Assembly (NCBI RefSeq): GCF_900753045.1
Contig: NZ_CAADXO010000012.1
Location: 36,588 to 100,587 of the forward strand
Length of the DNA stretch: 64,000 nt
Reading direction: 5' to 3'
From: an uncultured Phascolarctobacterium sp.
Lineage (GTDB): Bacteria; Bacillota; Negativicutes; Acidaminococcales; Acidaminococcaceae
This document shows, piece after piece, positions 30,986 through 64,000 of this stretch (its first letter is position 1; each line of letters opens with the position of its first letter). Below the pieces are notes generated by a model that was not told where the DNA came from, searched no databases, and saw only the letters and a list, made by a program, of their open reading frames with translations. The position numbers were made by a program, and so were the translations under genes.

Positions 30986-31175
30986 ATACACGGCCTCCAA
31001 TGTAATTTTCTCGAGGTGAATACTTGCTATTTATGTATCTATTTTAACCAATACACTTATATGGTTATGTCAAATAGATTATAAAGAAATATATTGTCTA
31101 GGTAATAAACTTGTATTATTTTGACAATGTATTCCCTTGTAAAACCTGTTGTTTGTGACTTTATAGTGTCACATG

Positions 31176-32330
31176 CTAAGCTTCTATCACAGCAACGTGT
31201 TTTTCCGAACATTCCTGCAAGATGTGCCCATAGATAGCATAGGTGACCGCTATGCTAGTGTGTCCTAAGCGTTCTGTTATAAGAGCTATAGGTACATGCT
31301 TGTAAATCATGTTGGATGCATTTGTGTGTCTCAATCCGTGGAACGTGAAAGGTCTAGTGATACCTGCGCCTTTCCTAGTGAAATCCCACGCATGGATAAG
31401 CAACCGCTCCACATAGAAGCTATCTCTTTTCCTATTATAGAAGATATAAGGTGACTTGTCAAAGCTAAGTGGCTTTAAAGACATAAGAAGCTGTGTTGTC
31501 TTCTCAGATATTTTGATGGTGCGATACCCAGCTTGTGTCTTAGGGTATGTAACTATTGTCTTGTTATTCTTATCCTTAGCTAAGGTTCTTTTTACAGATA
31601 TTGTATTAGCAGCATCATCGAGACAATCCCACGTAAGAGCTAACAGCTCCCCTTCTCTCATGCCTGTTTCATAAGCAAGACAATACAGAGCATAGAACTG
31701 ATACTTCAGCATAGGTTTCTCCTTGTGCTCCCATAGGGGCAGGAGGAACGCTTTGATTCGCTCGTGCTCCTCTTGCGATAAGACAACCACTTCATGTTTA
31801 GGTTTGTCACTCTTTGGTGTCTTCTGCATCGAAGTTACAGGTGACTTTCCAATGAGGTCTTGTTCTACACACCATTTGAAAAAGAGCCTTAAGCGACCTA
31901 TATAATTAAGATAGGTATTAGTTGAATAGTTCTTTTGATGCCACTCTAAGAGCATGGTATCTATAGTATGAGTGGTGACCTTAGATAACGCTAAGCCATT
32001 AGCTGTTTTGTCTAGGAGCTTAAGTACACGCCTTGTGGTGATTATTACAGACCCTGACATCCGCTGAGCTTCTAGGTGCTTAAGGTACACCTCACCCTGA
32101 TACTTTATTGTGTCTTCTTCTGCTTTTACTTGCAGACCTTTATCCTCTTTGTCTCTCTGAAGCTTCTTCAGCTTCTCCACAGCTTCCTTTTTTGTGTCTG
32201 CTGTGGCTGATAGCCAACGCCTTTTGCCATCCACAGGGTCTAATTCTACCCTAACACGTACTTTACCGCTAGGGAGGACTATTATAGACCCCTCTCCTTT
32301 AGGTCTTCTACGAGTGGTTTTAGATGGCAT
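31176..32330 (-). CDS. int: Tyrosine-type site-specific recombinase (phage integrase)
   Basis: C-terminal catalytic region FHGLRHTNAS ... LGHTSIAVTYAIYGHI carrying the R..H-x-x-R...Y signature. Start at MPSKTTRRR, 7 nt after AGGAGG. Confidence 0.9.
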   Translation of the reverse strand: MPSKTTRRRPKGEGSIIVLPSGKVRVRVELDPVDGKRRWLSATADTKKEAVEKLKKLQRDKEDKGLQVKAEEDTIKYQGEVYLKHLEAQRMSGSVIITTRRVLKLLDKTANGLALSKVTTHTIDTMLLEWHQKNYSTNTYLNYIGRLRLFFKWCVEQDLIGKSPVTSMQKTPKSDKPKHEVVVLSQEEHERIKAFLLPLWEHKEKPMLKYQFYALYCLAYETGMREGELLALTWDCLDDAANTISVKRTLAKDKNNKTIVTYPKTQAGYRTIKISEKTTQLLMSLKPLSFDKSPYIFYNRKRDSFYVERLLIHAWDFTRKGAGITRPFTFHGLRHTNASNMIYKHVPIALITERLGHTSIAVTYAIYGHILQECSEKHVAVIEA

Positions 32331-32389
32331 TATAAAACCTCCTGACTTCAAAAATTGCCAAAAATTGTGAAAGGGTATATATAATATAG

Positions 32390-32800
32390 AGATTGGCTGG
32401 TTTCCCCCCCGTGCCGTGGTCTTCGGGTCTCCTGCCTGGAATAGTATACACTATATCTGAATAACATATACTATATCGGTACTCCCAAGGGCACAAGTTA
32501 TGTCCGATAATATATCTTATGTTAAATTTCCCTTGCTTATACAAGGTTTTTGATAAGCTGTCCATATGTTATTACCTAGTTTTTATGGGGATATTGCGAA
32601 CATATGTACATAATAGCGAACGTATAGTATGGTTTAGGTAAAAATTAGGTATAAAATGTATCTGTATATATACCCTAGGTATCTAGTGTATCTAGTGTAT
32701 CCTATATCCCTGCTACATCCATTATATCCCTGAGTTGCCGTTGGTTACATTACTATAGATACTATTGTTAACATTAGCAGCTATTGCTACTACCATTATA
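32390..32800. repeat. Repeat-rich non-coding region between int and the RHH regulator
   Basis: Short direct repeats: AGTATACACTATATC / CATATACTATATCGG; GTATCTAGT twice; TATATCCCTG twice. A 55-bp GC-rich island lies at 32396-32449. Confidence 0.45.
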
Positions 32801-32816
32801 CAGTCAACAGCTACTA

Positions 32817-33002
32817 TTATATATCGCTGCTGCGCTTATGTTGTATGGTGGTGTCTTGTTGCTCATGTATCCATTGTGTTATTAGTTGTCTGAGTAGCTC
32901 ACTGCTATTAATAGCCTTGCTTTTACATAATGCCTGAAAATCATCTTTTAAGCGTTGCGGTACACGTACTCTAATTACTGTATCTTTATCATTATCATAC
33001 AT
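32817..33002 (-). CDS. Ribbon-helix-helix (Arc/CopG-like) regulator, candidate prophage repressor or excision regulator
   Basis: VIRVRVPQRLKDDFQALCKSKAINSSELLRQLITQWI fits an RHH fold. Transcribed divergently from the early operon across an operator-containing region. Confidence 0.55.
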   Translation of the reverse strand: MYDNDKDTVIRVRVPQRLKDDFQALCKSKAINSSELLRQLITQWIHEQQDTTIQHKRSSDI

Positions 33003-33048
33003 TATTATACGCCTCCTCTCTTGTTGTTATCCTCATTATACCATGCGT

Positions 33049-33190
33049 GGCTACATTTTGCTACATTTTTTTGAAAAAAGTACTTGCATTTTGTAGCTAC
33101 ATGTGGTATTATATAACCATATAGAGATACAAAAATACAGATACTCTCTATATATTTTTTAAACATCATGTAGCTACATAGAGCTACAAA
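33049..33190. promoter_or_regulatory. Operator cluster
   Basis: GCTACATTTT twice in tandem, TGTAGCTACA, ATGTAGCTACAT and GAGCTACA, all between the divergent RHH gene and the first early gene. Confidence 0.45.
33085..33112 (+). promoter_or_regulatory. Rightward early promoter with an overlapping palindromic operator
   Basis: TTGCAT, then 16 nt, then TATTAT. The spacer contains the perfect palindrome TGTAGCTACA (33092-33101). Confidence 0.45.
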
Positions 33191-33205
33191 AGGAGGTAAA
33201 TTAAT

Positions 33206-33424
33206 ATGAGAAGACAACAACAGACTACTAAAAAGCATATTGTAGAACCTGAAAAAATAGGCTATAAGAAGCAGAATAATGGCAGCGGTTACGCTATCAA
33301 AAAATATACACGCTTGTATAACCGCTACTGGGGAGATTATACAGTAATAGTAAGTAACTATCCCTCTTTAAATGCTATGCACTTGTTTGGTGCTCATGCA
33401 GATGTACAGATGTACCGCTACTAA
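33206..33424 (+). CDS. Early hypothetical protein (basic, 72 aa)
   Basis: ATG preceded by AAGGAGG. The N-terminus KKHIVEPEKIGYKK is paralogous to the next ORF. Confidence 0.45.
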   Translation: MRRQQQTTKKHIVEPEKIGYKKQNNGSGYAIKKYTRLYNRYWGDYTVIVSNYPSLNAMHLFGAHADVQMYRY

Positions 33425-33517
33425 TAAACTTTTATCGGTACTACCGCCCCGGCGGTGGTACTCATTAAGAGCTTATTAAACTCTTAAAACTTAATAACCT
33501 AGGAGGGACAAAAACAG

Positions 33518-33742
33518 ATGAAAAGACAAAAGCATATTGTAAACCCTGAAAATAAGCTGGGCACTATTAAGAAAAATACCAGCGATATGGGTTATATCCT
33601 CTTTACTTATGCAAAGGGTGCTGCTACTGATGTTGTAATTGTAAGTGAGTATGATACAGACTTTATCCGCTGTATCGCTTTTGACGCTTATACTCAAAAA
33701 GTAAATGAGCAAAAAAGATACTTGCAAGCGTGGGACAAATAG
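33518..33742 (+). CDS. Early hypothetical protein, paralogue of 33206..33424
   Basis: MKRQKHIVNPENKLGTIKK... against ...KKHIVEPEKIGYKKQ; RBS AGGAGGG. Confidence 0.45.
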   Translation: MKRQKHIVNPENKLGTIKKNTSDMGYILFTYAKGAATDVVIVSEYDTDFIRCIAFDAYTQKVNEQKRYLQAWDK

Positions 33743-33754
33743 GAGGGAAAAGTT

Positions 33755-33991
33755 ATGACAATGACGGAGAACGTATATTTAACCTACATGCAACTATTAG
33801 CTAACTATTACGAAAATGTTTACAAGTCACGTAAATGCCAAACAACGTTAGCTAAATTGCATGTTAGCGGACAAATATCGGATGCAGAGTACATTTCTTA
33901 TATCCCACGCATGGAAGCAAAGCTGGAGATATTAGCAGAATTGCAGAACCGGAACTATGAAGAGGACTTGAGAGATTTTAGCAAACTGTAA
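33755..33991 (+). CDS. Early hypothetical protein
   Basis: 78-aa ORF following GGAGGG. Confidence 0.4.
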   Translation: MTMTENVYLTYMQLLANYYENVYKSRKCQTTLAKLHVSGQISDAEYISYIPRMEAKLEILAELQNRNYEEDLRDFSKL

Positions 33992-34082
33992 TAGCTTTTT
34001 TCGGACATACTAGACACTTGTCTAGTGTGTCTCATAAAGAGTTATTAAGGATAACTCTAAAAATATTAGGAGGTAAATTAAT

Positions 34083-34328
34083 ATGGTAAAAAATGTGTGT
34101 CTTATGCTGGCGGTGCTGCTCATGGTGCACCTGAGCTGTGATGCAGCATCCAACCGCATCGGTGGGGAGGTAGATAATACCAGCACTGCTACTATGATTC
34201 TGTGGGACATCCGCACTGCTGTACAAGATGGCAGGTACACCGACCATCTTGCAGACATAGCAGCACAAATAGGCTGCTATGAGCTGGCAGAACTTATCAG
34301 CAACGCAGGAGGTGCAGATAATGCCTGA
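34083..34328 (+). CDS. Early hypothetical protein
   Basis: 81-aa ORF with RBS AGGAGG and a hydrophobic N-terminus. Confidence 0.4.
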   Translation: MVKNVCLMLAVLLMVHLSCDAASNRIGGEVDNTSTATMILWDIRTAVQDGRYTDHLADIAAQIGCYELAELISNAGGADNA

Positions 34329-34638
34329 ATGGTTAGAAGCTTTACTGATTGAAAAATTTGTAGTGCCTAACAAGCTTACAGAAGACCAGCAGCAACTATT
34401 AGAACAAATAGTGCTGGTGGGTGCTGAACTACAACCCATGCAGGAACAACGCTGGTATATCTCTTTTCCATATGTGCAGGCAGATATTTTAAAGTGGTAT
34501 TTACAAGAACACCATATAAAATATCAGGCAATAGAGGTTGCTAAAAATGTTGTACAAATATGGTATAACGCCCCAAAAAATAAAAAGGAATGTAAAGCAC
34601 TTGACGCTTTTATAAACCTGCTTACTAAAACCTTTTAG
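34321..34638 (+). CDS. Early hypothetical protein
   Basis: Start MPEWLEAL, 8 nt after AGGAGG, overlapping the previous stop; the ORF table begins 42 nt earlier. Confidence 0.4.
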   Translation: MPEWLEALLIEKFVVPNKLTEDQQQLLEQIVLVGAELQPMQEQRWYISFPYVQADILKWYLQEHHIKYQAIEVAKNVVQIWYNAPKNKKECKALDAFINLLTKTF

Positions 34639-34718
34639 AGCTTTTCAGGCATCCGCTCCGGCGGGTGTCTCATAAAGCTTTTACAGCTTTAAATAATAAC
34701 CTAGGAGGGAACAAAAAT

Positions 34719-35108
34719 ATGAGAACAAACAAGCAAGTAAAAATCAGCTTGCAGGACTTGCAGGCAGGTAAATATGCCAGCTTGCGCCCCGTCGAATTGC
34801 TGCGGACCTGCAGCCGGTGCTATATCATGCAGGTGCGGAAAAATAACTTTGCAATCTGTGTTATGGAGAAGGACGGCAGCTTATATCCCATCAATGCCCA
34901 TGTAGACAATGAAAAGGGCATAACTTATCGCCTACCCTACCATAAATATAATGCTGTGTCTGAGCCTATATGGACTTTTTACGTCGATGACTATTTTCAA
35001 CTAGCTATTCAGCAACTTTGCGACGTGGTACGGGCAATAAATGCTGATTGTACCATATACGCAGGCACGGCAGGTTGCGGAATTACTACTCATAAATACA
35101 TCAAATAA
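34719..35108 (+). CDS. Early hypothetical protein
   Basis: Start MRTNKQ after AGGAGGG, preceded by the conserved 58-bp intergenic element; the ORF table begins 54 nt earlier. Confidence 0.4.
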   Translation: MRTNKQVKISLQDLQAGKYASLRPVELLRTCSRCYIMQVRKNNFAICVMEKDGSLYPINAHVDNEKGITYRLPYHKYNAVSEPIWTFYVDDYFQLAIQQLCDVVRAINADCTIYAGTAGCGITTHKYIK

Positions 35109-35191
35109 CTTTAAGAGCTTTTCAGGCATCCGCTCCGGCGGGTGTCTCATAAAGCTTTTACAGCTTTAAAACATTATAGGAGGTACAAAAA

Positions 35192-35380
35192 ATGTATGCT
35201 ATCTATTTAAAATGCCCTAGCGGACGTTTTCACCCTATTAGCTTGCCTGAGGGTATTACAGTTAACCGCTTACTTTTTGCAAGTCTATGGGCAGAAAAAG
35301 CGCAAGCTGAAAAAGTTATGCAAAAACTGAAAGCATGGAATACTACTGCAATATTGCAAGTACGTAAAGTAAGAGCATAA
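35192..35380 (+). CDS. Early hypothetical protein (62 aa)
   Basis: RBS AGGAGG, preceded by a second copy of the 58-bp element. Confidence 0.4.
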   Translation: MYAIYLKCPSGRFHPISLPEGITVNRLLFASLWAEKAQAEKVMQKLKAWNTTAILQVRKVRA

Positions 35381-35486
35381 ATTATATTCAATTTAGGAGG
35401 TACAAAAGAAAAGTGAAAAAATGTTTAGTTTATCTGATTGAGTGTTTTTTAGTATCTAAACATACTAATCAGGTATTAAAAGAGGT

Positions 35487-35518
35487 AGCAAGATGCATTG
35501 CAGCCTTGCTTTTTGTCT
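35487..35518 (+). terminator. Early-region rho-independent terminator
   Basis: AGCAAGATGCATTGCAGCCTTGCT followed by TTTTTGTC. Confidence 0.5.
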
Positions 35519-35573
35519 TATTCTTTTCCATTGATTGGGATAAGACCCTGGATGCATGGGAGGTGCTTAAGTA

Positions 35574-35780
35574 ATGGATACATTGCAACAGCTACAGGCA
35601 GAACGAGACCGCACACAAAAACACTTGACTAATATGTCAAGTCTCTACTGTAAAAAGTACATGCAGAAAAATGATAAAAGTGAAGCAGCTTCTGAACTTT
35701 TAATGGATATAAAGTACATGGAGGGATACTTGGACGCTATAAACACTGCATTACTTATAATAGAGCCTATTCCCTTTTAA
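35574..35780 (+). CDS. Hypothetical protein (68 aa)
   Basis: RBS GGGAGGTG. Confidence 0.4.
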   Translation: MDTLQQLQAERDRTQKHLTNMSSLYCKKYMQKNDKSEAASELLMDIKYMEGYLDAINTALLIIEPIPF

Positions 35781-35867
35781 GAGTTTTTAGGGCATGTAGG
35801 GCAACCGCCCTGCGTGCCTTATAAAGCTTTTAAAGCTTTAATATTACTAATCTAGGAGGTGTTACAC

Positions 35868-36107
35868 ATGGATGTAACCTTAAAAAATGGCAAGCACTAC
35901 AGTATTACCTTGCGTGCATGGGACGGAGCACATTGGATGCCTGACTGTGCCGGGGACGTGCTGGCAACTTGGCAACCTGAGACACACGAGGACATTGACT
36001 GGCTTGTAGATGACTGCGACAACTTCAACGCAGGTGTAGACCTTGACTGGCTGGAGCACTGCCCAACGTGTCAAGAGGTGTCCTTGGATGTTCAGGAGGT
36101 GCAATAA
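35868..36107 (+). CDS. Acidic small protein
   Basis: MDVTLKNGKHY...DIDWLVDDCDNFNAGVDLDWLEHCPTCQE is strongly D/E-rich. The ATG lies 8 nt after AGGAGG. Confidence 0.45.
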   Translation: MDVTLKNGKHYSITLRAWDGAHWMPDCAGDVLATWQPETHEDIDWLVDDCDNFNAGVDLDWLEHCPTCQEVSLDVQEVQ

Positions 36108-36322
36108 TGGGAGAGCACAAAAGACAAGGCAAGACCTTTTTCGTGACTGTAGACGCTCATATGCAGGTTGCAATACATCGTGCCCCTAGTGGACATTTTT
36201 CGTATATTATCTACTACGATGGTAGACAAACAACCGGGGCATTACGTATCACACAAGCACATGCAGCCGATAAGCTGGGATTGACACTGCCGGAGCTGCT
36301 GGAAAAATTCAAACTTGACTAG
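36107..36322 (+). CDS. Hypothetical protein (71 aa)
   Basis: MGEHKRQGKTFFVTVDAHMQ..., ATG coupled to the previous stop, RBS AGGAGGTG. Confidence 0.4.
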   Translation: MGEHKRQGKTFFVTVDAHMQVAIHRAPSGHFSYIIYYDGRQTTGALRITQAHAADKLGLTLPELLEKFKLD

Positions 36323-36591
36323 CTAAAAACTGAACAGAGGTACGGACAAAACTGTACCTCTAATTTTTTGCACCCTTTTTTCGCCCCTCAACCGAACGGA
36401 ACGAAATGATGTTCGTAGTTACTGAAGCTCACCTGAGCGGAACGAAACGTGTTGTCTTGTGCGACGCACGGAGCGAAACGAAACGAGGATGCAGGGGCAA
36501 CCCAAGCTGCCAAGGCAAGCAATGGTACTTTTGGGCAAGCAAGGCAAGCCAAAGGGTACACGTATTAGAAGAAAGCAAGCAAGTTTTCTAC

Positions 36592-36616
36592 AATGGGTCA
36601 CCTTTAATGAAGAAAG
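36592..36616 (+). promoter_or_regulatory. Candidate phage-RNAP promoter, copy 1, upstream of the RNAP gene
   Basis: AATGGGTCACCTTTAATGAAGAAAG. The core GGGTCACCTTTAG resembles the -12 to -1 region of SP6/T7-type promoters (SP6: GGTGACACTATAG). Confidence 0.45.
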
Positions 36617-36643
36617 ACCCATCAACACAAGGAGGTATTTACA

Positions 36644-39229
36644 ATGACACAAGTAGATGTGGACATGATGGAAGAAGAATTGAAGTTGGAATCTGCCTAC
36701 AGATTAGCAGGGTATGAAACGATGCAACGCAACCTGCAACAAGCCAAAGAAAATAGCATGGTAGATACAGCTACCCCTATTGGACAAGCATTTTTCACCC
36801 ACAAGCTGTTGGCTGTAAAAGACACAATCGAACAATGGCTTATCAAGAACATGAAACCCAAAGCAGGTGTAAAGCCTAACTATACTTTTCTTTTGGAAGA
36901 CCTGAAAAGAGAGTTCCGCACAGAGGATGATGAGGTTGATATTGACACCATATCTTCTATCTGTGCTAGTGTTACCTTATCCGCTATCTTAAATGCCTTA
37001 ACTCTCAAAGGTGAAAAAGGCAACTATCTGAATGATGTAGCTGCTAAAGCTGGGCGTGGCTTGTACTATGAGTATCAGATGAAAGCCTTTGAAAATTGGC
37101 TGAAGACACAAGACACCAATAAAGGAGCATTGGCAGGTATAGAAAAAAGAGTTGGTCTCCATTATCGTTATGTCTATCTGAAACAGGCTATGTCCAAATG
37201 TGGCTACGCTGCCCCAAATTGGGATAGTCAGAACACAGCTATCCGTACATTAGGTACTGCTTTTGTTGTCTTAGCACAGGAGGAGACAAACTACTTCACC
37301 TTAGAAGCTACTATGGATACCCCTTCTGAGCTTATCCCCACAGAGCAATTTACAGAAGCGTGGCAACGCAATGAAGACAATATGCTGGAACATGCAAGAC
37401 AAAGCTGCCCTATGATTATCCCTCCTAAAGATTGGACAAGCTATGAGGATGGTGGTTATTATGGTGACCTTGCATCCTTCACCTCTCTCCTGCGTTTAAA
37501 GTACCTTGATACTATTTTTGGTAAACAGTACAAACGTAGACTTATGCAACTTGACATTCCACAGGTTTATAAGGCTGTCAATAGTATTCAGGCAACACCA
37601 TGGGTAATCAATAAGCAGGTATTAGAGGTGCTGAAGCAATGTAGACAAAACAACTATATCCCCTGCTCTAGTGAGAATGGAAATGTGCTGTCTTTAGAAA
37701 ATGATGATGCTCCCAAACAACCAGCATCCACAGCCACGGATGAGGAAATAAAGGCATATAAGAAAAAGGCTGTGGAATACTACAAGGGATTGAAACGTCG
37801 TATGTCTTTGCAGAATCGTGCAAATACTATTATAAATACAGCAGAACGCTTCAGCTCCTATGCACACATCTACTTTCCGTGGAACATGGACTTCAGAGGT
37901 CGCATTTACCCTATCCCCTCTTTCAGTCCTCAAAGTGATGATTTAAACAAAGGCTTATTACTTTTTGCAGACACACCACCTTGCCAACATGAAGAAGACA
38001 TCAAGTGGCTTGCCATTACCGGAGCGAACCTTGCAGGTGTAGATAAAGTAAGCTACGATGATAGAATTGCATGGGTATATCAGCATGAAGAAGATATATT
38101 AGCATCTGCTGCTGACCCTATGGGACATCAATGGTGGCTGCAACAGGATGAGCCTGTACAGATGCTGGCGTTCTGCTTTGAGTGGGCAAAGGCTAAGCAA
38201 TGGATAGTTGCACATGGCTCTATTGTTGGTTGGGTAACAGGTCTCCCCTATGCTCAGGATGGAACGTGCTCCGGTCTGCAACATTTCAGTGCTATTCTCA
38301 GAGACCCTATTGGTGGTAAAGCTGTAAACCTTGTACCCCAAGACAAACCAAATGACATCTATGCACAAGTAGCGGAAAAAGTCAATGAGTTTTTGAAAAA
38401 AGATGCAGTAAATGGCACTCTTGATGAATGGGATGAAAAGAAGCTGAGAATGAAGTTTGGCACAAAAACCCTTGCGCAAATATGGTTAAACTTTGGGGTA
38501 AACCGCAAGGTTACCAAAAGACCAACCATGACACTCGCCTATGGTGCTAAAAAGGCAGGATATACTGCTCAAATTATGGAAGACACCATAAAGAAGGCAA
38601 TGAGAGAGCAGGGAGAAGCGTGTGTCTTCACTCAATCTAATAATTTTCAGGCTGCACAGTATTTGGCTGGTCAGATATGGGATGCTGTGGGTCAAACAGT
38701 TGTAAAGGCTGTTGAGGGTATGGATTGGTTACATAAATGTGCTAAACTTGTCACAAAAAATTCAAATGTTGTATCTTGGGTTACCCCTCTAGGCTTACTG
38801 TTACAACAGAGCTATGTCAAGTTTGATATTGAAATTGTTAAGCTCAGATGTGCTGGAAAACGCTATCGTATCTATACTCCACATCAGAATGGACAGATAG
38901 ACAAAAGCAGACAAACAAATGGCATTGCCCCTAACTTCATTCATAGCATGGATGCATGTCACTTGCAACTTACAGTCTGCAAATGCAAAGATGCAGGAAT
39001 TAATCACTTTACGATGATTCACGATAGCTATGGTTGTCCTATGTCTCAGGTGGATATTATGTATAAGTTAGTAAGAGAAGCCTTTATAGAGCTTTATACA
39101 GAGCATGATGTTCTTGCTGAATTTAAAGAATCTCTACAATATTTAGTAACTAAAGAACTCCCTGCTCCACCTAAAAAGGGAGAATTAGACCTGAACATTA
39201 TAAGAGACAGTAAGTATATATTTTGCTAA
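36644..39229 (+). CDS. Single-subunit DNA-directed RNA polymerase (T7 gene 1 family)
   Basis: Motif A region DGTCSGLQHFSAILRD against T7 DGSCSGIQHFSAMLRD. Motif C MIHDSYG. LAFCFEWAKAK against T7 LAFCFEY. 861 aa against 883 aa in T7. Confidence 0.95.
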   Translation: MTQVDVDMMEEELKLESAYRLAGYETMQRNLQQAKENSMVDTATPIGQAFFTHKLLAVKDTIEQWLIKNMKPKAGVKPNYTFLLEDLKREFRTEDDEVDIDTISSICASVTLSAILNALTLKGEKGNYLNDVAAKAGRGLYYEYQMKAFENWLKTQDTNKGALAGIEKRVGLHYRYVYLKQAMSKCGYAAPNWDSQNTAIRTLGTAFVVLAQEETNYFTLEATMDTPSELIPTEQFTEAWQRNEDNMLEHARQSCPMIIPPKDWTSYEDGGYYGDLASFTSLLRLKYLDTIFGKQYKRRLMQLDIPQVYKAVNSIQATPWVINKQVLEVLKQCRQNNYIPCSSENGNVLSLENDDAPKQPASTATDEEIKAYKKKAVEYYKGLKRRMSLQNRANTIINTAERFSSYAHIYFPWNMDFRGRIYPIPSFSPQSDDLNKGLLLFADTPPCQHEEDIKWLAITGANLAGVDKVSYDDRIAWVYQHEEDILASAADPMGHQWWLQQDEPVQMLAFCFEWAKAKQWIVAHGSIVGWVTGLPYAQDGTCSGLQHFSAILRDPIGGKAVNLVPQDKPNDIYAQVAEKVNEFLKKDAVNGTLDEWDEKKLRMKFGTKTLAQIWLNFGVNRKVTKRPTMTLAYGAKKAGYTAQIMEDTIKKAMREQGEACVFTQSNNFQAAQYLAGQIWDAVGQTVVKAVEGMDWLHKCAKLVTKNSNVVSWVTPLGLLLQQSYVKFDIEIVKLRCAGKRYRIYTPHQNGQIDKSRQTNGIAPNFIHSMDACHLQLTVCKCKDAGINHFTMIHDSYGCPMSQVDIMYKLVREAFIELYTEHDVLAEFKESLQYLVTKELPAPPKKGELDLNIIRDSKYIFC

Positions 39230-56992: not shown

Positions 56993-57637
56993 ATGTGCAG
57001 TCCTATGGTGGCTGCTGGTATCAGTACAGGCTTGAAAGTAGCAGGTGACTACATGGGACAACGTGCGCAAGCTAAGGCAGCACAGGCTACCATGAACGCA
57101 CAGGCTAAGGCAGCTATTACTGAAATGAATTGGAATATCATGGATTTAGAACAGCAGCGCACAGATGCCTTTGACCAAGCTGTTGTGGAGATTAGCAACA
57201 CTAGGTTGAACTCTATGCAACTCAATAGTGGCGTAAAGGCTGCTGTGAATGAGACCATGAGCGGACGTACAGCTAACCTCATTGTACGTGCTGCCGAAGG
57301 TGATACCGCTCGTGCTGTGTCCTCTATCCAAGATAACTATAAACGTAAATCTAATGAGGTTGACCTGAATCGTGAGCGTCAGGTAAAATCTACTCACGAA
57401 TATTTAGAGAACCTTAATGCTTCTGCTCCTAAGATGCCTAGTAGATTCACTAACTTATTGTCTTCTGCTGCAACAGGCTTGAATAATTATACGCAAGCTA
57501 AGAATATTATGAATCAGCAGAAGATTACAGGTGGTGCTGGAAAAGCAGCAAAAAATGCTACTAAGACATGGGTGGGCAACGCTCCACGTAGCGTCCATGA
57601 GAAGCTAGGTATTGGTAATGGTATTTACAGGAGGTAA
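56993..57637 (+). CDS. Internal virion protein B, T7 gp14 family
   Basis: N-terminus MCSPMVAAGISTGLKVAGDYMGQRAQAKAAQATMNAQ against T7 gp14 MCWAAAIPIAISGAQAISGQNAQAKMIAAQTAAG. Size and position fit. Confidence 0.7.
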   Translation: MCSPMVAAGISTGLKVAGDYMGQRAQAKAAQATMNAQAKAAITEMNWNIMDLEQQRTDAFDQAVVEISNTRLNSMQLNSGVKAAVNETMSGRTANLIVRAAEGDTARAVSSIQDNYKRKSNEVDLNRERQVKSTHEYLENLNASAPKMPSRFTNLLSSAATGLNNYTQAKNIMNQQKITGGAGKAAKNATKTWVGNAPRSVHEKLGIGNGIYRR

Positions 57638-57642
57638 GAAGA

Positions 57643-59736
57643 TTGAGTAAAGAAGTACAGGCAGCGGTAGGTACTCAACGGCAGTTTGCAAAGCAACCGG
57701 AGATGCCCTATGCGCTGTCCTTAAATAAATTCAATGCATCTACAGGTATCTCACAACGTACAGATTTAGATGCACAGCGCTTAGCATCATCTTTAGGTCT
57801 CCTTGGTAAGAATATCATGGAGGAGCGTATTGCTGATGAGAAGCGTACCCAAGACCAAGCAGTCTTGGTCAATGCAGACAAACTCCTTGCAGGTAAGACA
57901 CAAGAAGACCTGAAGAAGTTTGACCGCATGGCAGCTTTACAGAACTCTAGTGCTGATTTTGACTTGACAGATAACCGCTATGCTATGGCTGTTCTTGAAA
58001 AAGGCATTGGTAAAATGGCAAGCCAATATGCTAAAGAGCAATGGGCAAATGACCCTGCTTCTGAAAAGCCTAAGAGTGTATCTGAAGCTGTTAGTCTTTT
58101 CAATAAATATTTGCAGGAGAACAGAGCTAACTTCAGTGATGATGGTATCTCTAATAAGGTAGCATTTGACCAAGGCTATTATGAGGGTGCTGTTCAAGAC
58201 ACAATAAAAATAGCTAATGAAGCTGACAAGAGAATCAATGATGATAAGCGTCAGAAGATGGTCATGTTAGGTTCTAGTGAGTTTCAAGACCTTGTGTATA
58301 GTGGAGCTAAGGGTGAAGACTTCCTCACTCGTGGCAATGAAGCGTTGCGTAAAGTTCAGTTAGGTGCTAGAGATAGAGATGGTTTCATTAAAGCTGTTGC
58401 TCCTCTTGCTCAGATGATTGCTGACCAAGATTTTGATACGGCAAGATTGGATGCCTTAGGTGACTATCAGTACGAAGATGGTTTGTCTTTAAAGCAGATG
58501 GTTAACCTCTACCCCTCCTATACCAAGATTGCAGATAACTTCAATCTGAGAGTTACCGATGATATTGTGTCTAAATGCACACGTCCTGATGGCACTGTTG
58601 ACCTCTCAAAAGCTGAAGCATTGTTGTCTCAGTTACCTGCGGAAACTACAAATGCTGATGGTATTCCTGAAGCTAACCTGCCTATCTCGCAGGGAGACAA
58701 CCCCGACTTAGCAGACCTGTCACCCACTATGAAAAGTGTGTTACCTATGGTTGGTGGTGCTATCTATCAGTTAGGTTTTAAGGATGCACAGATTACCAGC
58801 GGTTATCGTACAGCAGAGCACAATGCGTCTGTGGGTGGTGTACCAAACTCAGAACATACCCAAGGCAATGCTGTGGATATTTATTTAGGTGACAATGTGG
58901 ACGAAGCACAGGCAAATAAAGCATTGGCTTATTTTAAGCAATACTTTGGTGAGGTCTTGTTCCATGATGCTGGCACAGGCAGACATTTGCATCTTGCTGA
59001 TTACCATGGTGGTATGAAAGCTGCTAATCCTAAAGAGCAGTCTGCTGCTGCCTATAATCCCCAACGTGTCAATAAGATACGCCAAGCTATCTATGCCAAA
59101 CAGGCACAGGCTCAGCGTGTTAAGGCTCAACGTGATGCTGAGGAAAGAGACAGAATCAATATGGCTCTTTTGCAGACCAATGACCCCAACGAGCAATTAC
59201 AGATTATTAATAGCTCTAACTTGCCAGCAGCAACTAAAGCTACTATGGCTCGTACTATTACACGCCAAGCACGTCAGTCCGCTAAAGGCTATGGTAATGA
59301 TGCAGAAGCTAAACATTTTTGGTCATATGAAAATAGCTATCAATATATTAAAGACACACAGACATATGCCGAATGGTACAAAGCTTATCAAGACCCTGAT
59401 GTTGATGGAGATTCTGATGAGTATAAGGCTTTGCAAAAGAGAGCTAATAGAGCCACAGCAAGACTTAATGACTTGCTAGAGTTCAAAAAGAAACGTGGGT
59501 ATATTCCTAGTGAGCAGGCTAAGACAACACAGTCTAATGAACCTCCTGATGATACCCCTGTGTTCTCTCAAAAAGACAAGGATATTGCTGAGATGAAGAT
59601 ATGGGCAAACAGTAACCCTAAAAATTCTGCTGGCGTACCTTTGGATGAAGACCAAATACGTGATGCTATTGATAAGTTTGCTATACGTAATGGTCTTGAT
59701 GTGAATGATATTGAGGAGGAGGTCTTTGGTTCATAA
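57643..59736 (+). CDS. Internal virion protein C (gp15-like) carrying a peptidase-M15 (LAS metallopeptidase) domain
   Basis: Position and size match gp15, with a moderate match at the MSK N-terminus. The region at about 58780-59015 encodes ITSGYRTAEHNASVGGVPNSEHTQGNAVDIY...HLHLADYHGG. That is the SxHxxGxAxD...H zinc-site signature of M15/VanY-like peptidoglycan peptidases. Confidence 0.72.
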   Translation: MSKEVQAAVGTQRQFAKQPEMPYALSLNKFNASTGISQRTDLDAQRLASSLGLLGKNIMEERIADEKRTQDQAVLVNADKLLAGKTQEDLKKFDRMAALQNSSADFDLTDNRYAMAVLEKGIGKMASQYAKEQWANDPASEKPKSVSEAVSLFNKYLQENRANFSDDGISNKVAFDQGYYEGAVQDTIKIANEADKRINDDKRQKMVMLGSSEFQDLVYSGAKGEDFLTRGNEALRKVQLGARDRDGFIKAVAPLAQMIADQDFDTARLDALGDYQYEDGLSLKQMVNLYPSYTKIADNFNLRVTDDIVSKCTRPDGTVDLSKAEALLSQLPAETTNADGIPEANLPISQGDNPDLADLSPTMKSVLPMVGGAIYQLGFKDAQITSGYRTAEHNASVGGVPNSEHTQGNAVDIYLGDNVDEAQANKALAYFKQYFGEVLFHDAGTGRHLHLADYHGGMKAANPKEQSAAAYNPQRVNKIRQAIYAKQAQAQRVKAQRDAEERDRINMALLQTNDPNEQLQIINSSNLPAATKATMARTITRQARQSAKGYGNDAEAKHFWSYENSYQYIKDTQTYAEWYKAYQDPDVDGDSDEYKALQKRANRATARLNDLLEFKKKRGYIPSEQAKTTQSNEPPDDTPVFSQKDKDIAEMKIWANSNPKNSAGVPLDEDQIRDAIDKFAIRNGLDVNDIEEEVFGS

Positions 59737-62700
59737 TGAGTATTATCGAGGATTTAAATAAACTTGGTGATGAATCATATGGTGATTTACAAGCCAAGGG
59801 CGAAGCACAGCTCCAAAAGATACAACATCAAGGCTATAACCCTTTTGATGATTTTGCCGGTGCTGTTACCGAATGGATTGCAGACATAAATAAATCAGGA
59901 CAAAAACTTACTGAGAAAGCAAGTGAAGCTTACCAAGCAGGTGTCTTGCCTGATTCTATAGATGATATGGCATTACCTCAACAGGATATGTCTCCTGCCC
60001 AAGAAAAGGTTGCCCAAGCTTTGCAGGATGCTGTGGATGATGCTCGCTATACTGCCACTAAAGACCCTCTTACTCTCGTAGGTGATGTAGCTGGTGCTGT
60101 TAGTCCTTGGATTCCCTTAGCTGTTCAAGTACCTATCATGGTACATGAGATGCAGAAGGCACAAGAGATTGAAAACGCCCCTGAGATGTCTGACCAAGCC
60201 AAAGCATCCCTGCTCCCTATGTTGGCAGGTACTGTGGCAGCTTCTGTGACACATGGCGTGGGGGGGCTTTTATCTAAGGCTGCCCCCACAGTCTCTAAGG
60301 TTATGACTACACCTTTTGTGGGTAGTGGTATCGCAGCAGGTACAGTTCTTGCTATGGATGAAAATGTCCGTAAGTATGCAGAAGAACATCCTGCTCGTTT
60401 TGCTGTCAGTCAGTTTCTGACAGATACTGCTATTAGTGCTAAAAAGCTTGCCAAAGCAGATTGGTCTGCTAAGACAACCCCTATCACGGATGCAGAGATT
60501 GTGTCTGAAAAGACAAATCCTGCTACTGAGGTTATGGCTGATAAGACTAAGGTTGAGGAGACAAACAAAAAGTTAGGTTCTCCTACTAAAGAGAAGAATA
60601 AAAGAAAGTGTAAGCATCGTAAGCAACATCGTGAGAATGTATGGGATGTTGACAATGACTATGAGGAGATGGTTACACCTGCTCAGGTTACTAAGCGTGA
60701 ACCCAAGACAACCGCTGAAAAAGCTTATCCTGAACAGATGCCTGAACAGCAAATGCAACAGGATGCTATTGCTAATCAGTTAGCTAAAGACCGCATCGAA
60801 GCCAGTCAGACACCTGAAATTATGCAGGGTGCTCATGGTGATAAGCTTGAATATAGCAAAGATAATCTTTATCCTCATCCTGTGAGTGCAGAAGATATTT
60901 GGGAAACTGCAAAAGCTATGTTCCCTATTCGCCCCGGTAGGCTGGATTTAGCTGATAGTGATAGAACCTTAGGCTACTTTATGCCCCATGGTAAAGGTAT
61001 TCGTATCCGTGGTTTCCGTGCATGGTCTGTAATCTGTCACGAAATCGGACATGGTTTGTCTGATAAATTTGGTTGGGGTAAAGATACAGCAATTCAAAAA
61101 GAACTTTATGATGGTGCAACTTCCATATGGCAACATGGTGAGTATGGCAATAGATATGCCCCGGAAAACTATGCTACCTATGTAGAAGAAGGACGTGCTG
61201 CCTTTATGAATGAGTATTGTGTTAACCCTGAGATGGCTAAGAAGCACTTCCCTCTTGCCTATGCTGAGTTTGAAAAGGCTATTACAAGTGATAGATTCTA
61301 TCAGGCACAAATGAACCTTTTAGGTCAACAGGTACGCCGATGGGGTTCTCAGTCTGCCTTCAGCAAAGCTGCTGGTATGTTCCATTGGGCAGACAAAGAG
61401 CTTGGCAAAAGAATTGATAAACTCATTGGTACTTGGACTGCTACTAAAAAGCATTTTGCTTGGGAGTATGCTGACCTTGACGAAAGCATAAGAGCCTATG
61501 AGGATAATCAAGGTGTAAAGATAGCTATGGAGAATGACCCTGCTGTCTTAGCACAGTATGCAAAGCAAGCAGGTAATGATACTGTTGGTTGTCTTCTGAA
61601 TGGTAATAATCTAGGCACTAGAGCTGCTATTAAGATGTTGCAAACAAAATTCAATGTCGCTCTTAATAATGTTGTTGCTAGTGATATTATAGTACCCCTA
61701 AGACCACTAGGTAAGCGTGGTGCTGAACTCCAAAAGTGGCTTGCAGAGACAGAATATAAGGATATGTATGAAGCCTTTAATACTTACCAAACAGCTAAGC
61801 ATGAATTAGAAGTTATGTCAACAGGACGTAAGACAACACATACTCTTGAAGAATGTAATAAAATCATTGCTAAAGCAGAAGAACTGCCTGAAATGAAAGT
61901 GGCTTCTAACCTTTGGAAACAATGGAATGAGAATGTGTTGCGTATTGCTGTTGCTGGTCAGATTATCCCTGCAAAGGTTGCTAATACCTTTTTGAAAAAA
62001 TACCCTGAATATATCCCTATGTCTCGTTCATTTGAGATTGAGGGTACAAGTGACTTCTTTGCATCCCATAAAGCTATGACTGTTGAGGGTTCTGAGCGTA
62101 TCATCAAAGACCCTATGGTACAGGCTATGAAGAATATGCAGAGTATTGTCACTAAGGTAGAGCGCAACCGTGTTGGTCTTGCTCTTGCTGATTTAGCTAA
62201 GGGTGAAAATGGACATTTTCTTATGATGCCTGTAAAAGATGGTAAATACAAGCACGCTTCACAAATTATTACTGTCTATGAAGATGGGCATCCTAAATAC
62301 TACCAATGTATGATGAAAGGTCTCTATGAAGCTATGACTTCCGAAGATGGCAATATAAGTGCTTCTAAACTTGACATTATTGAGAAAATCTCTCATGGTG
62401 CAGCAACAGCTTTACGTATTGGTGCTACTAGCACACCTATGTTTGCTACTGCTAACCTCTGCAAAGATATTCTTGAAGCAACTATTATGAACGCTGATGG
62501 GCGTAGTGCTTCTCACATTCCCCTTGTTGCTCCTATGAAAATCTTTTGGCAGGGATTGCAGATGCTCAATAGTGACAATGCTTTTGGTAAACTTATCATC
62601 CGCAACAACAGAGAACGTGCTCTGCTTAGACAATACAAAAGAGAATTTAGGTCTAATGGTGTCACTATGTCCACACGCTTAGGCTCTATTGCTGAAATTA

Positions 62701-63917
62701 ATAAAGACTTTAGGAAAATTGTAGACCCTAACATTAGTGATTCTGCCCTTGATAAAATCTTATATCCTATCAAAGTATTATGGAATTGGAATGTAGCATA
62801 TGGTGAAGCTATGGAACAGTTACCACGTATGGCTCTTTATCGACGTGCTAAAGGACGTGGTGCTTCTATGATTGAAGCTGCTATGGTTGCTTCTGACAGT
62901 ACCCTTAATTTTGCGAAGAGTGGTACTACTGTTAAAATTCTTAACATGCATACACCTTTTTTAAATGCTGCTTTTCAAGGTACTTTAAAGACAGCTAGAG
63001 AGCTTTCTAAAAATCCTCTCAGTGTTGGTCTTGCATTGGCAGAACATCTACTATTGCCAACCCTTGTGCTTTGGTATTGGAATAAGGATGAAGATTGGTA
63101 TAAAGATATGCCTATGGAAATGAAAAATAAAGCATGGTATATAAAAATAGGAGACCATATTTATGACTATCCTAAACCAGCCTTTATCGGACAGCTTGCT
63201 GGCTCAATACCTGAAAGATTATTAGATGTTATGTCTGAGGGTGAAGATAAGCAGGTTATTGCTGATGCTGTCTATAAGCTTATCAAAGAGCTTGCTCCGT
63301 CAGGCGCACCCCCTATCATCGAAAAATTCTATGAGTGGCAGACAAATCATTCTATGTACCGAAACCGCCCTCTTGTTGACCAGCGTCTTGAAAAGCTCAG
63401 TCCTAAGAACCAATATAATCAGTACACCTCTATGTTAGCACGTGGTATTGGACAGGTAACTAATCTGTCACCTATTAAGATAGACAATACAATCTATGGT
63501 CTCACAGGCTCTATGGGTTATGCTTTTATGAATGTTGTGGATATGGTAGCTAGGGATAATATCACCCCCAGCAAGAAATGGACTGAATATACTCGCTTTA
63601 CTTATACTGAGGGTACAGGTACTTCCCGTAGCAAGGATGTATTCTTTGGTGGTCTTGATAAGTTAGAGACACAATATGCAGATGCTTCTTTTGAGGGCAG
63701 GAAGCCTAAGGTGGGCAAAGAACTCAAAGGTATGCGTAAAGCTAGGGCAGATGCTATGAAAGTTTCTAAGGCTATCAGGGAACTGTATGCAGACAAAACT
63801 ATGGATGCAGACACTAAGCGTACTAAACTTGATGAGCTGAATAAGAAGCAGAATAGTATTTTCAGAACTGCTAACAAGAAATACCTCAATTATAAATATA
63901 TACAAGCACCTAAATAA
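59736..63917 (+). CDS. Internal virion protein D (gp16-like, 1393 aa)
   Basis: Giant protein at the gene-16 position; its ATG overlaps the gp15 stop. I did not recognise an SLT/lytic-transglycosylase motif. An HExxH motif (WSVICHEIGHGLSD) lies at about 61038-61052. Confidence 0.7.
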   Translation: MSIIEDLNKLGDESYGDLQAKGEAQLQKIQHQGYNPFDDFAGAVTEWIADINKSGQKLTEKASEAYQAGVLPDSIDDMALPQQDMSPAQEKVAQALQDAVDDARYTATKDPLTLVGDVAGAVSPWIPLAVQVPIMVHEMQKAQEIENAPEMSDQAKASLLPMLAGTVAASVTHGVGGLLSKAAPTVSKVMTTPFVGSGIAAGTVLAMDENVRKYAEEHPARFAVSQFLTDTAISAKKLAKADWSAKTTPITDAEIVSEKTNPATEVMADKTKVEETNKKLGSPTKEKNKRKCKHRKQHRENVWDVDNDYEEMVTPAQVTKREPKTTAEKAYPEQMPEQQMQQDAIANQLAKDRIEASQTPEIMQGAHGDKLEYSKDNLYPHPVSAEDIWETAKAMFPIRPGRLDLADSDRTLGYFMPHGKGIRIRGFRAWSVICHEIGHGLSDKFGWGKDTAIQKELYDGATSIWQHGEYGNRYAPENYATYVEEGRAAFMNEYCVNPEMAKKHFPLAYAEFEKAITSDRFYQAQMNLLGQQVRRWGSQSAFSKAAGMFHWADKELGKRIDKLIGTWTATKKHFAWEYADLDESIRAYEDNQGVKIAMENDPAVLAQYAKQAGNDTVGCLLNGNNLGTRAAIKMLQTKFNVALNNVVASDIIVPLRPLGKRGAELQKWLAETEYKDMYEAFNTYQTAKHELEVMSTGRKTTHTLEECNKIIAKAEELPEMKVASNLWKQWNENVLRIAVAGQIIPAKVANTFLKKYPEYIPMSRSFEIEGTSDFFASHKAMTVEGSERIIKDPMVQAMKNMQSIVTKVERNRVGLALADLAKGENGHFLMMPVKDGKYKHASQIITVYEDGHPKYYQCMMKGLYEAMTSEDGNISASKLDIIEKISHGAATALRIGATSTPMFATANLCKDILEATIMNADGRSASHIPLVAPMKIFWQGLQMLNSDNAFGKLIIRNNRERALLRQYKREFRSNGVTMSTRLGSIAEINKDFRKIVDPNISDSALDKILYPIKVLWNWNVAYGEAMEQLPRMALYRRAKGRGASMIEAAMVASDSTLNFAKSGTTVKILNMHTPFLNAAFQGTLKTARELSKNPLSVGLALAEHLLLPTLVLWYWNKDEDWYKDMPMEMKNKAWYIKIGDHIYDYPKPAFIGQLAGSIPERLLDVMSEGEDKQVIADAVYKLIKELAPSGAPPIIEKFYEWQTNHSMYRNRPLVDQRLEKLSPKNQYNQYTSMLARGIGQVTNLSPIKIDNTIYGLTGSMGYAFMNVVDMVARDNITPSKKWTEYTRFTYTEGTGTSRSKDVFFGGLDKLETQYADASFEGRKPKVGKELKGMRKARADAMKVSKAIRELYADKTMDADTKRTKLDELNKKQNSIFRTANKKYLNYKYIQAPK

Positions 63918-63966
63918 ATGTTATAATTTAGGTGAATTTACACAAAGATAAGGGAGGACATTTATT

Positions 63967-64000
63967 ATGTCAACAACAGCAAAAGCTTTTCTAATAAGCT
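63967..64000 (+). CDS. Start of the next late gene (tail fibre expected by synteny), truncated by the window end
   Basis: RBS GGGAGGA then ATG; MSTTAKAFLIS... Only 11 codons are visible. Confidence 0.3.
   Translation, partial: MSTTAKAFLIS

Follow-up and report, generated by a model that had tools for sequence, protein, structure and literature searches.

The DNA analysed here, referred to as the window, is a stretch of 64,000 nt from an uncultured human-gut Phascolarctobacterium (class Negativicutes, family Acidaminococcaceae in the NCBI taxonomy). Its right-hand portion, positions 31040-64000, is very probably the left-hand part (~33 kb) of a T7-like podovirus that is temperate, intact, about 45 kb long and integrated in the host chromosome. 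T7-like phages were long regarded as strictly lytic viruses of Gram-negative bacteria. Temperate T7-like phages are by now an established category, and the present element is a new, well-supported example of it in an unusual host group; none of its features calls for a new mechanism. Phascolarctobacterium is a succinate-consuming gut commensal and, like the Negativicutes in general, belongs to the diderm Firmicutes, which possess an outer membrane. The notable features of the element are the class of its host, a switch based on a ribbon-helix-helix (RHH) protein with matched protein and operator types, an attachment (att) site in the purL promoter, and an intron within the gene for DNA polymerase at a position outside those described.

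The boundary between host and element is visible in base composition. The GC content is 49.2% at 1-31039 (host) and 41.5% at 31040-64000 (element) by direct measurement, and a 1-kb composition profile falls sharply near 31,000 and stays uniformly low to the right. An earlier note on this DNA had put the host flank at about 57% GC and taken the host for a high-GC Firmicute. Only a few genes reach about 56% (purL, hydF and topA have 52-56%, above the mean of the flank), and the host is a diderm Negativicute of about 49% GC. The host genes named in that note are all correct: purL, hydF, dprA, topA and lexA are confirmed by NCBIfam, and trmFO is so named by RefSeq. The gene next to the element, purL, encodes the large single-chain FGAM synthase (27209-30985, minus strand; TIGR01857, 1861.8 bits). 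Read from the sequence, its true start is the ATG at 30985, preceded by the ribosome-binding site (RBS) GGAGG at 30994-30998. The attachment core lies 55 bp upstream of this ATG, and not about 30 bp from it as had been estimated. As that note had also said, only the left junction of the prophage is inside the window.

Evidence for integration is provided by the comparison of junctions in IMG/VR, which covered about 20 contigs whose terminase fragment is 99-100% identical and 22 whose integrase is 93-98% identical. Three kinds of junction are found. The purL-side junction, attL (...TATGTAT-CTATTTTAAC-CAATACAC...), is present in the window and in four other contigs. The thiE-side junction, attR (...AATGAAA-ATATTTTAAC-ACACTTCGGCG...), is present in at least 12 contigs, including one of P. 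succinatutens CAG:287, and the right flank continues in the order thiE, thiM, thiD. Finally, the terminase end is joined directly to the integrase end in at least six contigs of attP type (...AATGAAA-CTATTTTAAC-CAATACAC...), one of which is a circularly permuted genome of 44.8 kb. The comparison of attL, attP, attR and the empty attB defines the core in the window as the 9 bp TATTTTAAC at 31040-31048, which on the purL strand reads GTTAAAATA. The strictly common overlap is the 7-bp TTTTAAC at 31042-31048. Because variation at the first two positions of the core follows the phage arm, strand exchange most likely takes place within TTTTAAC. The earlier note had pointed to a direct repeat matching the left junction as something to look for to the right; a short repeat of this kind forms attR in at least 12 independent contigs.

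The two junctions also predict what an unoccupied chromosome should look like. The empty attB, ATGTWTCTATTTTAACACACTTYGGCG, was predicted solely from them and sought with a junction-spanning DNA pattern; it was matched exactly in 68 human-gut metagenome contigs. Four of the 68 were checked, and these carry purL, the core and thiE-thiM-thiD, with 94-97% identity to the host DNA of the window. A protein look-up meant to find empty sites returned no exact record for the purL protein with either start. The exact empty-site matches thus define attB. Integration is real and site-specific, and attB lies in the thiE-purL intergenic region. Both forms for which a search had been proposed, a circular excised molecule and an empty site, have counterparts in these attP-type contigs and attB matches.

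The P' arm of the attachment site (31049-31175) is highly conserved in 12 relatives. At about 31146-31171 it holds an inverted repeat, GTGAC..GTCAC, with ATAGTGTCAC, which is similar to the two tandem ATAGTGACCA repeats in the P arm at the opposite end of the phage. These repeats are putative arm-type sites for the integrase. Other descriptions of the phage ends were considered and set aside. A tRNA attachment site is not supported, as no tRNA lies within the window. A terminal repeat of about 410 bp spanning attP was first suggested by IMG/VR contig ends lying about 2.8 and 3.2 kb past the terminase start; it was rejected. The clusters of contig ends reflect prophage trimming, because the ends match the integrase stop codon, the last phage ORF (open reading frame) and the thiE start. 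In one contig (L095, 11300-12131), the integrase-side core is joined to a flank other than purL, with tandem genes for Rpn-like repeat proteins; this flank may be a secondary attachment site sharing GTTAAAATA.

The second line of evidence is the gene plan, which is that of T7 with an integrase added at the early end. A tyrosine integrase is encoded at 31176-32351 on the minus strand (PF00589 E=2.1e-24, phrog_1 E=1.1e-59; probable start ATG 32330), 4.3 kb upstream of the gene for a T7-type single-subunit RNA polymerase (RNAP). All genes from 33206 rightward are on the plus strand. The RNAP gene (36644-39229) is recognised over its full length (PF00940 E=7.7e-110, RPOL_N E=2.8e-9, phrog_414 E=7.8e-233), and its translation contains the catalytic motifs A (DGTCSGLQH), B (RKVTKRPTMTLAYG) and C (HDSYG). 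After the replication genes follow, again on the plus strand, the portal (49801-51348), the scaffold (51332-52093) and a gp10-type major capsid protein (52167-53180), identified by PF12236 (E=7.5e-86), PF21703 (E=8.8e-46) and phrog_1052, with PF05396 found on an identical contig. Terminator-like hairpins with T runs can be read from the sequence after the scaffold gene (~52109-52139) and the capsid gene (~53198-53229). Next come tail tubular gp11 (53246-53821; PF17212 E=3.6e-42), the gp12 nozzle (53826-56564; PF25675 E=9.5e-276), gp13 (56612-56986) and gp14 (56993-57637). They are followed by a protein in the gp15 position with a Peptidase_M15 domain (57643-59736) and a protein in the gp16 position with an LPD38 domain (59736-63917). 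The internal virion proteins are based on phrog_308, phrog_805, PF08291 and PF18857, together with PF11090 and PF24072 on the identical contig. The proteins in the gp15 and gp16 positions are putatively assigned, by position and size, as they do not match the T7 gp15 and gp16 families. The M15 and LPD38 domains suggest that wall degradation by the ejection apparatus relies on a peptidase and not on the transglycosylase of T7. The diderm host is consistent with a virion of T7 type, which has a nozzle and ejects internal proteins.

The right end of the phage lies beyond the window and can be read from a 47.7-kb human-gut metagenome contig (L001). This contig is identical to the window over the shared 14,265 bp and encodes exactly the same gp16-position protein. 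Past the end of the window it encodes two small membrane proteins, then a GGDEF protein that stands alone, a tail fibre whose N-terminal domain is that of T7, and a DUF4376 protein. The holin and the M15 endolysin are next, followed by NrdD, a ribonucleotide reductase of class III; the contig closes with a gp18-like small terminase and the first part of the large terminase. The gene set is complete, the prophage is about 45 kb long, and the window holds the left ~33 kb. The T7 order from RNAP through gp16 proposed in the earlier note is borne out by the Pfam and PHROG assignments, with gp15 and gp16 placed as just described, and the tail fibre, holin, endolysin and both terminases it had expected to the right are present. 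RNAP, capsid, portal and nozzle all fall in T7-like families in protein searches, which excludes coincidental synteny.

The third line of evidence is a divergent switch region between the integrase and the early genes. Leftward of it lies a gene for a 61-aa RHH regulator of Arc/CopG type (32817-33002, minus strand; RHH_1 E=4.8e-4, Arc-like PHROGs). The similarity of this protein to ParG is weak (E=0.93). A single-sequence AF2 model (mean confidence, pLDDT, 73) has an extended N-terminus and then two helices, which is compatible with a strand-helix-helix topology. The switch region itself (33003-33205) was analysed by inspection and by pattern and repeat searches. A rightward early promoter consists of TTGCAT at 33084-33089, a 17-nt spacer and TATTAT at 33107-33112. 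The operator TGTAGCTACA lies inside this spacer at 33092-33101, and TGTAGCTACA occurs again at 33169. The latter copy belongs to a second operator, ATGTAGCTACAT at 33168-33179, which together with a GCTACA half-site at 33183-33188 lies just 5' of the first rightward RBS. Further GCTACA half-sites at 33050-33055 and 33060-33065 overlap the leftward promoter of the RHH gene (-10 at 33035-33040). A 77-aa ORF on the minus strand (33005-33238) was rejected as a gene: it has no family hits and overlies the operator and promoter region.

One way to connect a regulator with its operator is to see whether the two change together among relatives. In the window and 22 relatives, the C-terminal two-thirds of the RHH protein, with the helices, are near-constant, and four types can be told apart by the N-terminal segment, the part in which RHH proteins have their DNA-reading strand. 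Each N-terminal type pairs with its own operator at the same promoter positions in these 23 sequences. Type A, found in the window and nine relatives, has the N-terminus DTVIRVRVPQ and the operator TGTAGCTACA. Type B has DVFIQVRVPKE and GTAGTG..CACTAC, type C has DSYIRLRIAAD and the operators TGTTGCAACA and TGTTATAACA, and type D has DAIMQIRLPIS and TGTAATTACA. The covariation therefore marks the RHH protein as the regulator of the switch, predicted to bind the operators, and the sequences lead us to conclude that the population holds at least four putative RHH/operator specificities. Around it, the block of integrase, RHH gene and switch is conserved at 84-92%, and the adjoining early genes are mosaic among relatives.

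That the RHH protein is the sole immunity repressor can be proposed from these patterns. Alternatively, it might only be an accessory regulator, like Arc and Mnt of P22, with the true repressor being an unannotated small protein or a regulator acting on the three GAACGGAACGAAA repeats that lie just upstream of RNAP. These repeats are situated at 36387-36485, between a terminator and the RNAP promoter, and in a relative from P. faecium the RNAP gene is immediately preceded by a Bro-N/ANT antirepressor-like gene. In addition, the repressor proposed for described temperate T7-like phages is a MarR protein at the RNAP promoter, according to the passages of PMC10134795 used here. However, no regulator other than the RHH gene can be recognised in the leftward module by the integrase, the one strong early promoter that points rightward has the RHH operators in its spacer, and protein type and operator change together in the relatives. 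An accessory role is therefore a serious but rather unlikely alternative.

Another possibility is that the phage integrates without true lysogeny, the insertion being a transient stage of an essentially lytic infection. This has been reported for T7-like cyanophages that carry integrases, integrate and form no lysogens (title of PMC8776855). For the present phage such behaviour is improbable. The integrated form is found in long host contigs: an exact-sequence look-up located a host insulinase-family protein, the phage RNAP and the phage capsid, all RefSeq proteins of "uncultured Phascolarctobacterium sp.", together on one 237-kb RefSeq contig from a metagenome-assembled genome, and the related prophage lies in a complete P. 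faecium chromosome. Both junctions recur in many independent samples. Likewise, four matched regulator-operator specificities form a pattern typical of the superinfection immunity of temperate phages.

A further question is whether the element is a cryptic, decaying remnant that can neither excise nor grow. The DNA polymerase gene is interrupted, which might be taken as a sign of decay, and Pfam and PHROG searches recognised no excisionase and no classical CI or MarR repressor. The interruption itself was analysed in some detail. An ORF at 44001-45362 begins with the first exon (44001-45347, 449 aa; PF00476, phrog_17), which contains the 3'-5' exonuclease domain and the first half of the polymerase domain. 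It ends ...RNAAKTFIYAFL at 45347, after a T and inside motif B. The following 655 nt (45348-46002), ending in G at 46002, match the Rfam family Intron_gpI. The RF00028 score is 29.2 bits (E=3e-5 in a 1.1-kb search), under the gathering score of 50, and P7 aligns strongly. Inside lies an ORF for an HNH homing endonuclease (45441-45860; phrog_25862 E=5.8e-22). The second exon (46003-46512, 169 aa, starting YGAGDKAIGK; phrog_15971 E=2.5e-38) continues in a checked frame. The insertion falls between residues that we take to be equivalent to I765 and Y766 of E. coli Pol I, in motif B on the O-helix. The spliced polymerase would have 618 aa; gp5 of T7 has 704 aa.

The relatives indicate what kind of interruption this is. 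Both exons were placed in 36 near-identical relatives, and in 28 of these they are joined in frame, with zero gap, at this exact point. One relative (L241) has the same 655-bp insert, and the inserts of others differ (233 or 683-708 bp) and stand at this point or five codons before it. The interruption thus appears to be a precise, optional group I intron and not a disruption; splicing is predicted from the sequence. The claim of the earlier note that the gene content is intact holds for the full T7 set, including the right end on the identical contig. For the polymerase it needs qualification: the gene is split by the intron, and therefore "intact" depends on splicing. Apart from this precise optional intron, no T7 core gene is missing or truncated. 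Many samples contain near-identical genomes, in both integrated and attP-type forms, one of them the 44.8-kb circularly permuted genome, and the exact capsid sequence is found on 110 contigs. A decaying remnant is thus very improbable. The least tenable explanation, which the earlier note had also raised, is a chimeric assembly of a free phage contig and a host contig; the metagenome-assembled source and the abrupt GC change might suggest one, but it is excluded by the exact match of the predicted empty site in 68 contigs, by identical junctions in independent assemblies, and by a core that obeys att logic at each of them.

Several observations weigh against the interpretation as an intact temperate phage, or limit it. 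The temperate lifestyle that had been proposed is supported by the att sites and the switch, and stable lysogeny is inferred from the sequence. The palindromic operators named in the earlier note are real, and the RHH assignment that accompanied them is a borderline one: the Pfam score for RHH_1, 20.4 bits, falls 0.1 bit short of the cut-off of 20.5. Foldseek with the RHH model gave no significant structural match, and the 61-aa protein is without an autocleavage domain. No excisionase was recognised among the phage ORFs with Pfam and PHROG. Junctions of attP type could also come from tandem prophages or replicative concatemers instead of excised circles, and one such contig is 81 kb long. The right end of the present genome is taken from the identical 14.3-kb overlap and from near-identical relatives. 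A relaxed search (up to 8 mismatches) for the candidate phage promoter, a 22-mer, found only three copies and none in the late region, so that late transcription may occur by read-through or from another promoter class. Finally, the purL promoter and its proposed replacements, described below, are consensus matches.

The proposed life cycle can be summarised as follows. The integrase recombined attP with the chromosomal attB through the 9-bp core TATTTTAAC. In the lysogen, the RHH protein, expressed from the leftward promoter, would bind the TGTAGCTACA operators in the spacer of the early promoter, before the first rightward RBS and over the promoter of its own gene. With the early promoter shut and a terminator in front of the RNAP gene, no RNAP would be made and the genes that depend on phage promoters would stay silent. 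In lytic growth, RNAP would read its own 22-bp promoters and drive the genes for replication, structure, lysis and packaging in T7 order. The polymerase mRNA would first have to lose its 655-nt putative group I intron.

Integration may also affect the neighbouring host gene. At an empty site (L140), a promoter scan finds TGGATA-16-TAAAAT with an upstream TG, after a terminator-like hairpin just 3' of thiE. The -10 hexamer TAAAAT of this likely purL promoter falls inside the att core. In the lysogen, purL retains the -10, and the -35 region is exchanged for phage DNA. A promoter scan of the phage side finds two promoter-like sequences on the minus strand that face purL. One is TTTACA-17-AATAAT in the P' arm (31143-31115). 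The other is TTGACA-17-TATAAT inside the 3' part of the integrase gene (31462-31434), with a scan score of 12/12. The hexamers of the latter are invariant in 21 relatives despite variable synonymous sites nearby. Transcription of purL in the lysogen may then also be supplied by these conserved outward promoters. Two other possibilities were rejected. TTGACA at 31069-31074 (minus strand) is unsuitable as a new purL -35, being 21 nt from the -10 and polymorphic among relatives, and a search for a riboswitch or other RNA upstream of purL gave nothing at the Rfam gathering threshold in the window or in L001.

The control of the RNAP gene involves further elements. Between the early genes and RNAP lies an intrinsic terminator (36336-36361, plus strand) with a 10-bp stem and a T run, found by a terminator scan. 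A candidate phage-RNAP promoter, the 22-mer AATGGGTCACCTTTAATGAAGA (36592-36613, plus strand), is located 30 bp upstream of the RNAP start. The 22-mer, AATGGGTCACCTTTA(G/A)TGAAGA, occurs in three copies with at most one mismatch, where zero are expected by chance. Two identical tandem copies (39228-39249 and 39413-39434, plus strand) lie just 3' of the RNAP gene and flank a 163-bp AT-rich stretch full of inverted repeats. In T7, the primary origin lies directly after gene 1 and combines an AT-rich region with a tandem pair of promoters. The layout at 39228-39434 resembles it and would be a plausible replication origin by analogy, and the 22-mers are candidate promoters for the phage RNAP. A promoter-like site at 36281-36308 stands directly before the early terminator, and the repeats at 36387-36485 are three spaced copies of GA(A/G)CG(G/A)AACGAAA. 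Together, these may form a second control point on RNAP expression.

In addition, phages with nearly the same integrase and structural genes carry two classes of RNAP, with about 72-76% and 90-92% nucleotide identity to the window (35390-39300 compared with contigs L095-L116). It would appear that phages of this population exchange the RNAP gene and perhaps also promoter specificity.

Further features of the early region are repeats and small ORFs. A repeat-rich and apparently non-coding stretch of about 465 bp (32352-32816), with direct and inverted repeats, separates the integrase gene from the RHH gene; an 81-aa ORF at 32320-32565 has no Pfam or PHROG family match. The early genes (33206-36322, plus strand in the ORF list) encode small proteins, are mosaic among relatives and have no family hits in Pfam or PHROG searches. 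A PADLOC search of the unassigned phage proteins also gave no hits. Among the early genes there is a 67-nt element with near-identical copies at 34627-34693 and 35104-35170 and a partial copy at 35814-35841. It consists of a GC-rich hairpin (GCATCCGC..GCGGGTGT) followed by CTCATAAAGCTTTTACAGCTTTAAA, and by analogy with the sites between T7 early genes it could be an early promoter, a terminator or an RNA-processing site.

The replication genes, all on the plus strand and assigned with Pfam and PHROGs, begin with a DUF3310 protein (39444-39815) and a dUTPase-like protein (39778-40317). They continue with a gp2.5-like single-stranded DNA-binding protein (40742-41341), endonuclease I (41348-41815) and a primase-helicase (42147-43763), and then with the split polymerase. 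After it, the segment 46645-49609 holds a methyltransferase-like protein (46645-47154), a 3D-domain or peptidase-like protein (within 46991-47533), the thymidylate synthase ThyX (47657-48277), a gp6-like exonuclease (48401-49174) and small ORFs.

Two of the genes beyond the window merit separate mention. The GGDEF protein (184 aa; L001 15002-15556, about 0.7-1.3 kb past the end of the window) has the motif SGDEF and a Pfam E-value of 4.4e-15. Its gene lies between those for the gp16-position protein and the tail fibre, and sigma-70-like promoters are found upstream of the two preceding genes for small membrane proteins. It is a possible lysogenic-conversion gene, predicted to act on cyclic di-GMP. 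The NrdD gene (L001 20790-22955) lies between the endolysin and terminase genes, and no NrdG activase was recognised among the phage genes.

Two segments of the host flank, 23375-25131 and 25974-27056, are low in GC (38%) and missing from the contigs in which related strains show the empty site. In the first lies the gene for an ATPase of 434 aa (AAA_14/DUF4143) with a match to the candidate defence family PDC-S01 (E=9e-173); in the second are genes for a Macro-domain protein and a HicB-like antitoxin. An ADP-ribosylglycohydrolase gene sits between the two segments.

Related prophages lie in genomes of P. faecium, Veillonella and Dialister. A scan with the terminase fragment, one genome per species, gives identities of 87% for P. 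succinatutens, 72% for Veillonella intestinalis, 70% for a Dialister sp. and 69% for another Veillonella, and 40-59% for prophages in Alpha- and Gammaproteobacteria and Desulfovibrionaceae. The contig L003, assigned to a Segatella copri bin, has 81% identity in terminase, 80% in NrdD and 69% in the GGDEF protein; it is most likely a binning error and not a sign of a Bacteroidota host. RNAP has 452 strong homologues, with a large group at 49% identity annotated from P. faecium, and its 90%-identity cluster has 469 members. The complete P. faecium genome LR215982.1 (1959890-1982409) contains the related T7-like prophage, whose integrase adjoins nadD-like host genes. It has small leftward genes, the Bro-N/ANT antirepressor-like gene directly upstream of RNAP, and the same replication genes, with the DNA polymerase split around an Endonuclease_7 gene and NrdD in the replication module.

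Among 50,697 deposited phage records there is no nucleotide match. The best protein identities to deposited phages are at most 36% for RNAP and at most 45% for the capsid, over the full length, and the relatives among the matches listed are all from phages of Gram-negative hosts, mostly Proteobacteria. Clear homology thus exists at the order level only; the phage would therefore represent a new lower-rank taxon, without genus or subfamily relatedness to classified members.

A wider picture can be drawn from these data, and it is offered tentatively, as a possibility on the less likely side. T7-like podoviruses may be a resident temperate lineage of diderm Firmicutes (Phascolarctobacterium, Veillonella, Dialister), with prophages of Proteobacteria as their nearest outside relatives. 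Their minimal RHH switch may have given rise to at least four immunity types by exchange of strand and operator, and insertion into the purL -10 may let outward promoters take over purL transcription. If this is true, the lineage is a counter-example to the published view that Negativicute phages were not acquired from Gram-negative phyla, and envelope architecture, not host phylogeny, would set the host range of the T7-type virion.

The findings matter for several reasons. They place a common T7-like temperate type in an outer-membrane lineage of Firmicutes, frequent in human-gut metagenomes with dozens of lysogen contigs, and they bear on whether the phages of Negativicutes follow host ancestry or envelope type. 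Experimental work on the system may be possible, since one complete P. faecium genome contains a relative. A compact and naturally diversified set of repressors and operators beside a single-subunit RNAP could serve as orthogonal parts for anaerobe genetics. Lysogeny may also alter purL regulation in an abundant gut commensal.

The closest known systems are other temperate T7-like phages. Examples in the passages of PMC10134795 used here are a prophage of P. putida KT2440, Agrobacterium phage Pasto, Pelagibacter phage HTVC019P and Pseudomonas phage LUZ100, and the survey of Boeckman et al. 2022 (Virology 568:86), as summarised there, has "Gram-positive" hits. These phages share with the present element the T7 plan, a site-specific tyrosine integrase encoded early and close to RNAP, and chromosomal integration. 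In LUZ100 a phage promoter stands directly upstream of RNAP (PMC10134795), as the candidate 22-mer does here. They differ in several respects. The characterised examples named in those passages infect Proteobacteria, whereas the host here is a Negativicute (Bacillota). A MarR repressor at the RNAP promoter is proposed for some of them (PMC10134795); here there is an RHH protein, and no MarR or winged-helix hit was obtained among the early ORFs in Pfam and PHROG searches. The attachment site is the intergenic thiE-purL promoter and not tRNA-Leu, as proposed for LUZ100 and pelagiphages (PMC10134795).

Compared with T7 and the Autographivirales in general, the RNAP motifs, the tandem candidate promoters and AT-rich region after RNAP, and the placement of the lytic genes on one strand are the same. 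Homologues of gp2.5, gp3, gp4, gp5, gp6, gp8-gp14, gp17, gp18 and gp19 are shared with T7, as are the hairpins after scaffold and capsid. The integrase-regulator module, the M15 and LPD38 proteins outside the T7 families at the gp15 and gp16 positions, and the extra genes for ThyX, dUTPase, class III NrdD and GGDEF set the element apart from T7, and its polymerase is shorter (618 against 704 aa).

Group I introns with HNH genes have been described in the polymerase genes of the T7-like phages PhiI, W31 and Pf-WMP3, at sites 674, 676 and 881 (PMC3428280). Like these, the present intron is optional, has an HNH ORF, lies in the conserved part of a family A polymerase, follows a U and ends in G. 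Unlike them, it is inserted inside motif B, at none of the three described sites.

The regulator resembles Arc, Mnt and CopG in its very small size, its predicted strand-helix-helix fold, its palindromic and tandem half-sites over promoters and its N-terminal variation. It differs from Arc and Mnt, which are accessory and of immI type, in that it appears to be the main switch beside the integrase. The integrase is like lambda-type tyrosine integrases in its catalytic domain and in using a short core that is the same in attP and attB.

The prophages of Negativicutes were surveyed by Rands, Brussow and Zdobnov in 2019 (bioRxiv 10.1101/606087). They found them to be mostly lambdoid, like those of other Firmicutes, and considered acquisition from Proteobacteria unlikely; their text makes no mention of T7-like phages, podoviruses or RNA polymerase. 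As in that survey, the prophages considered here come from human-gut Acidaminococcales and Veillonellales, and related phages span both orders. In contrast to its conclusion, the deposited relatives listed for the present phage are all from phages of Gram-negative hosts, mostly Proteobacteria.

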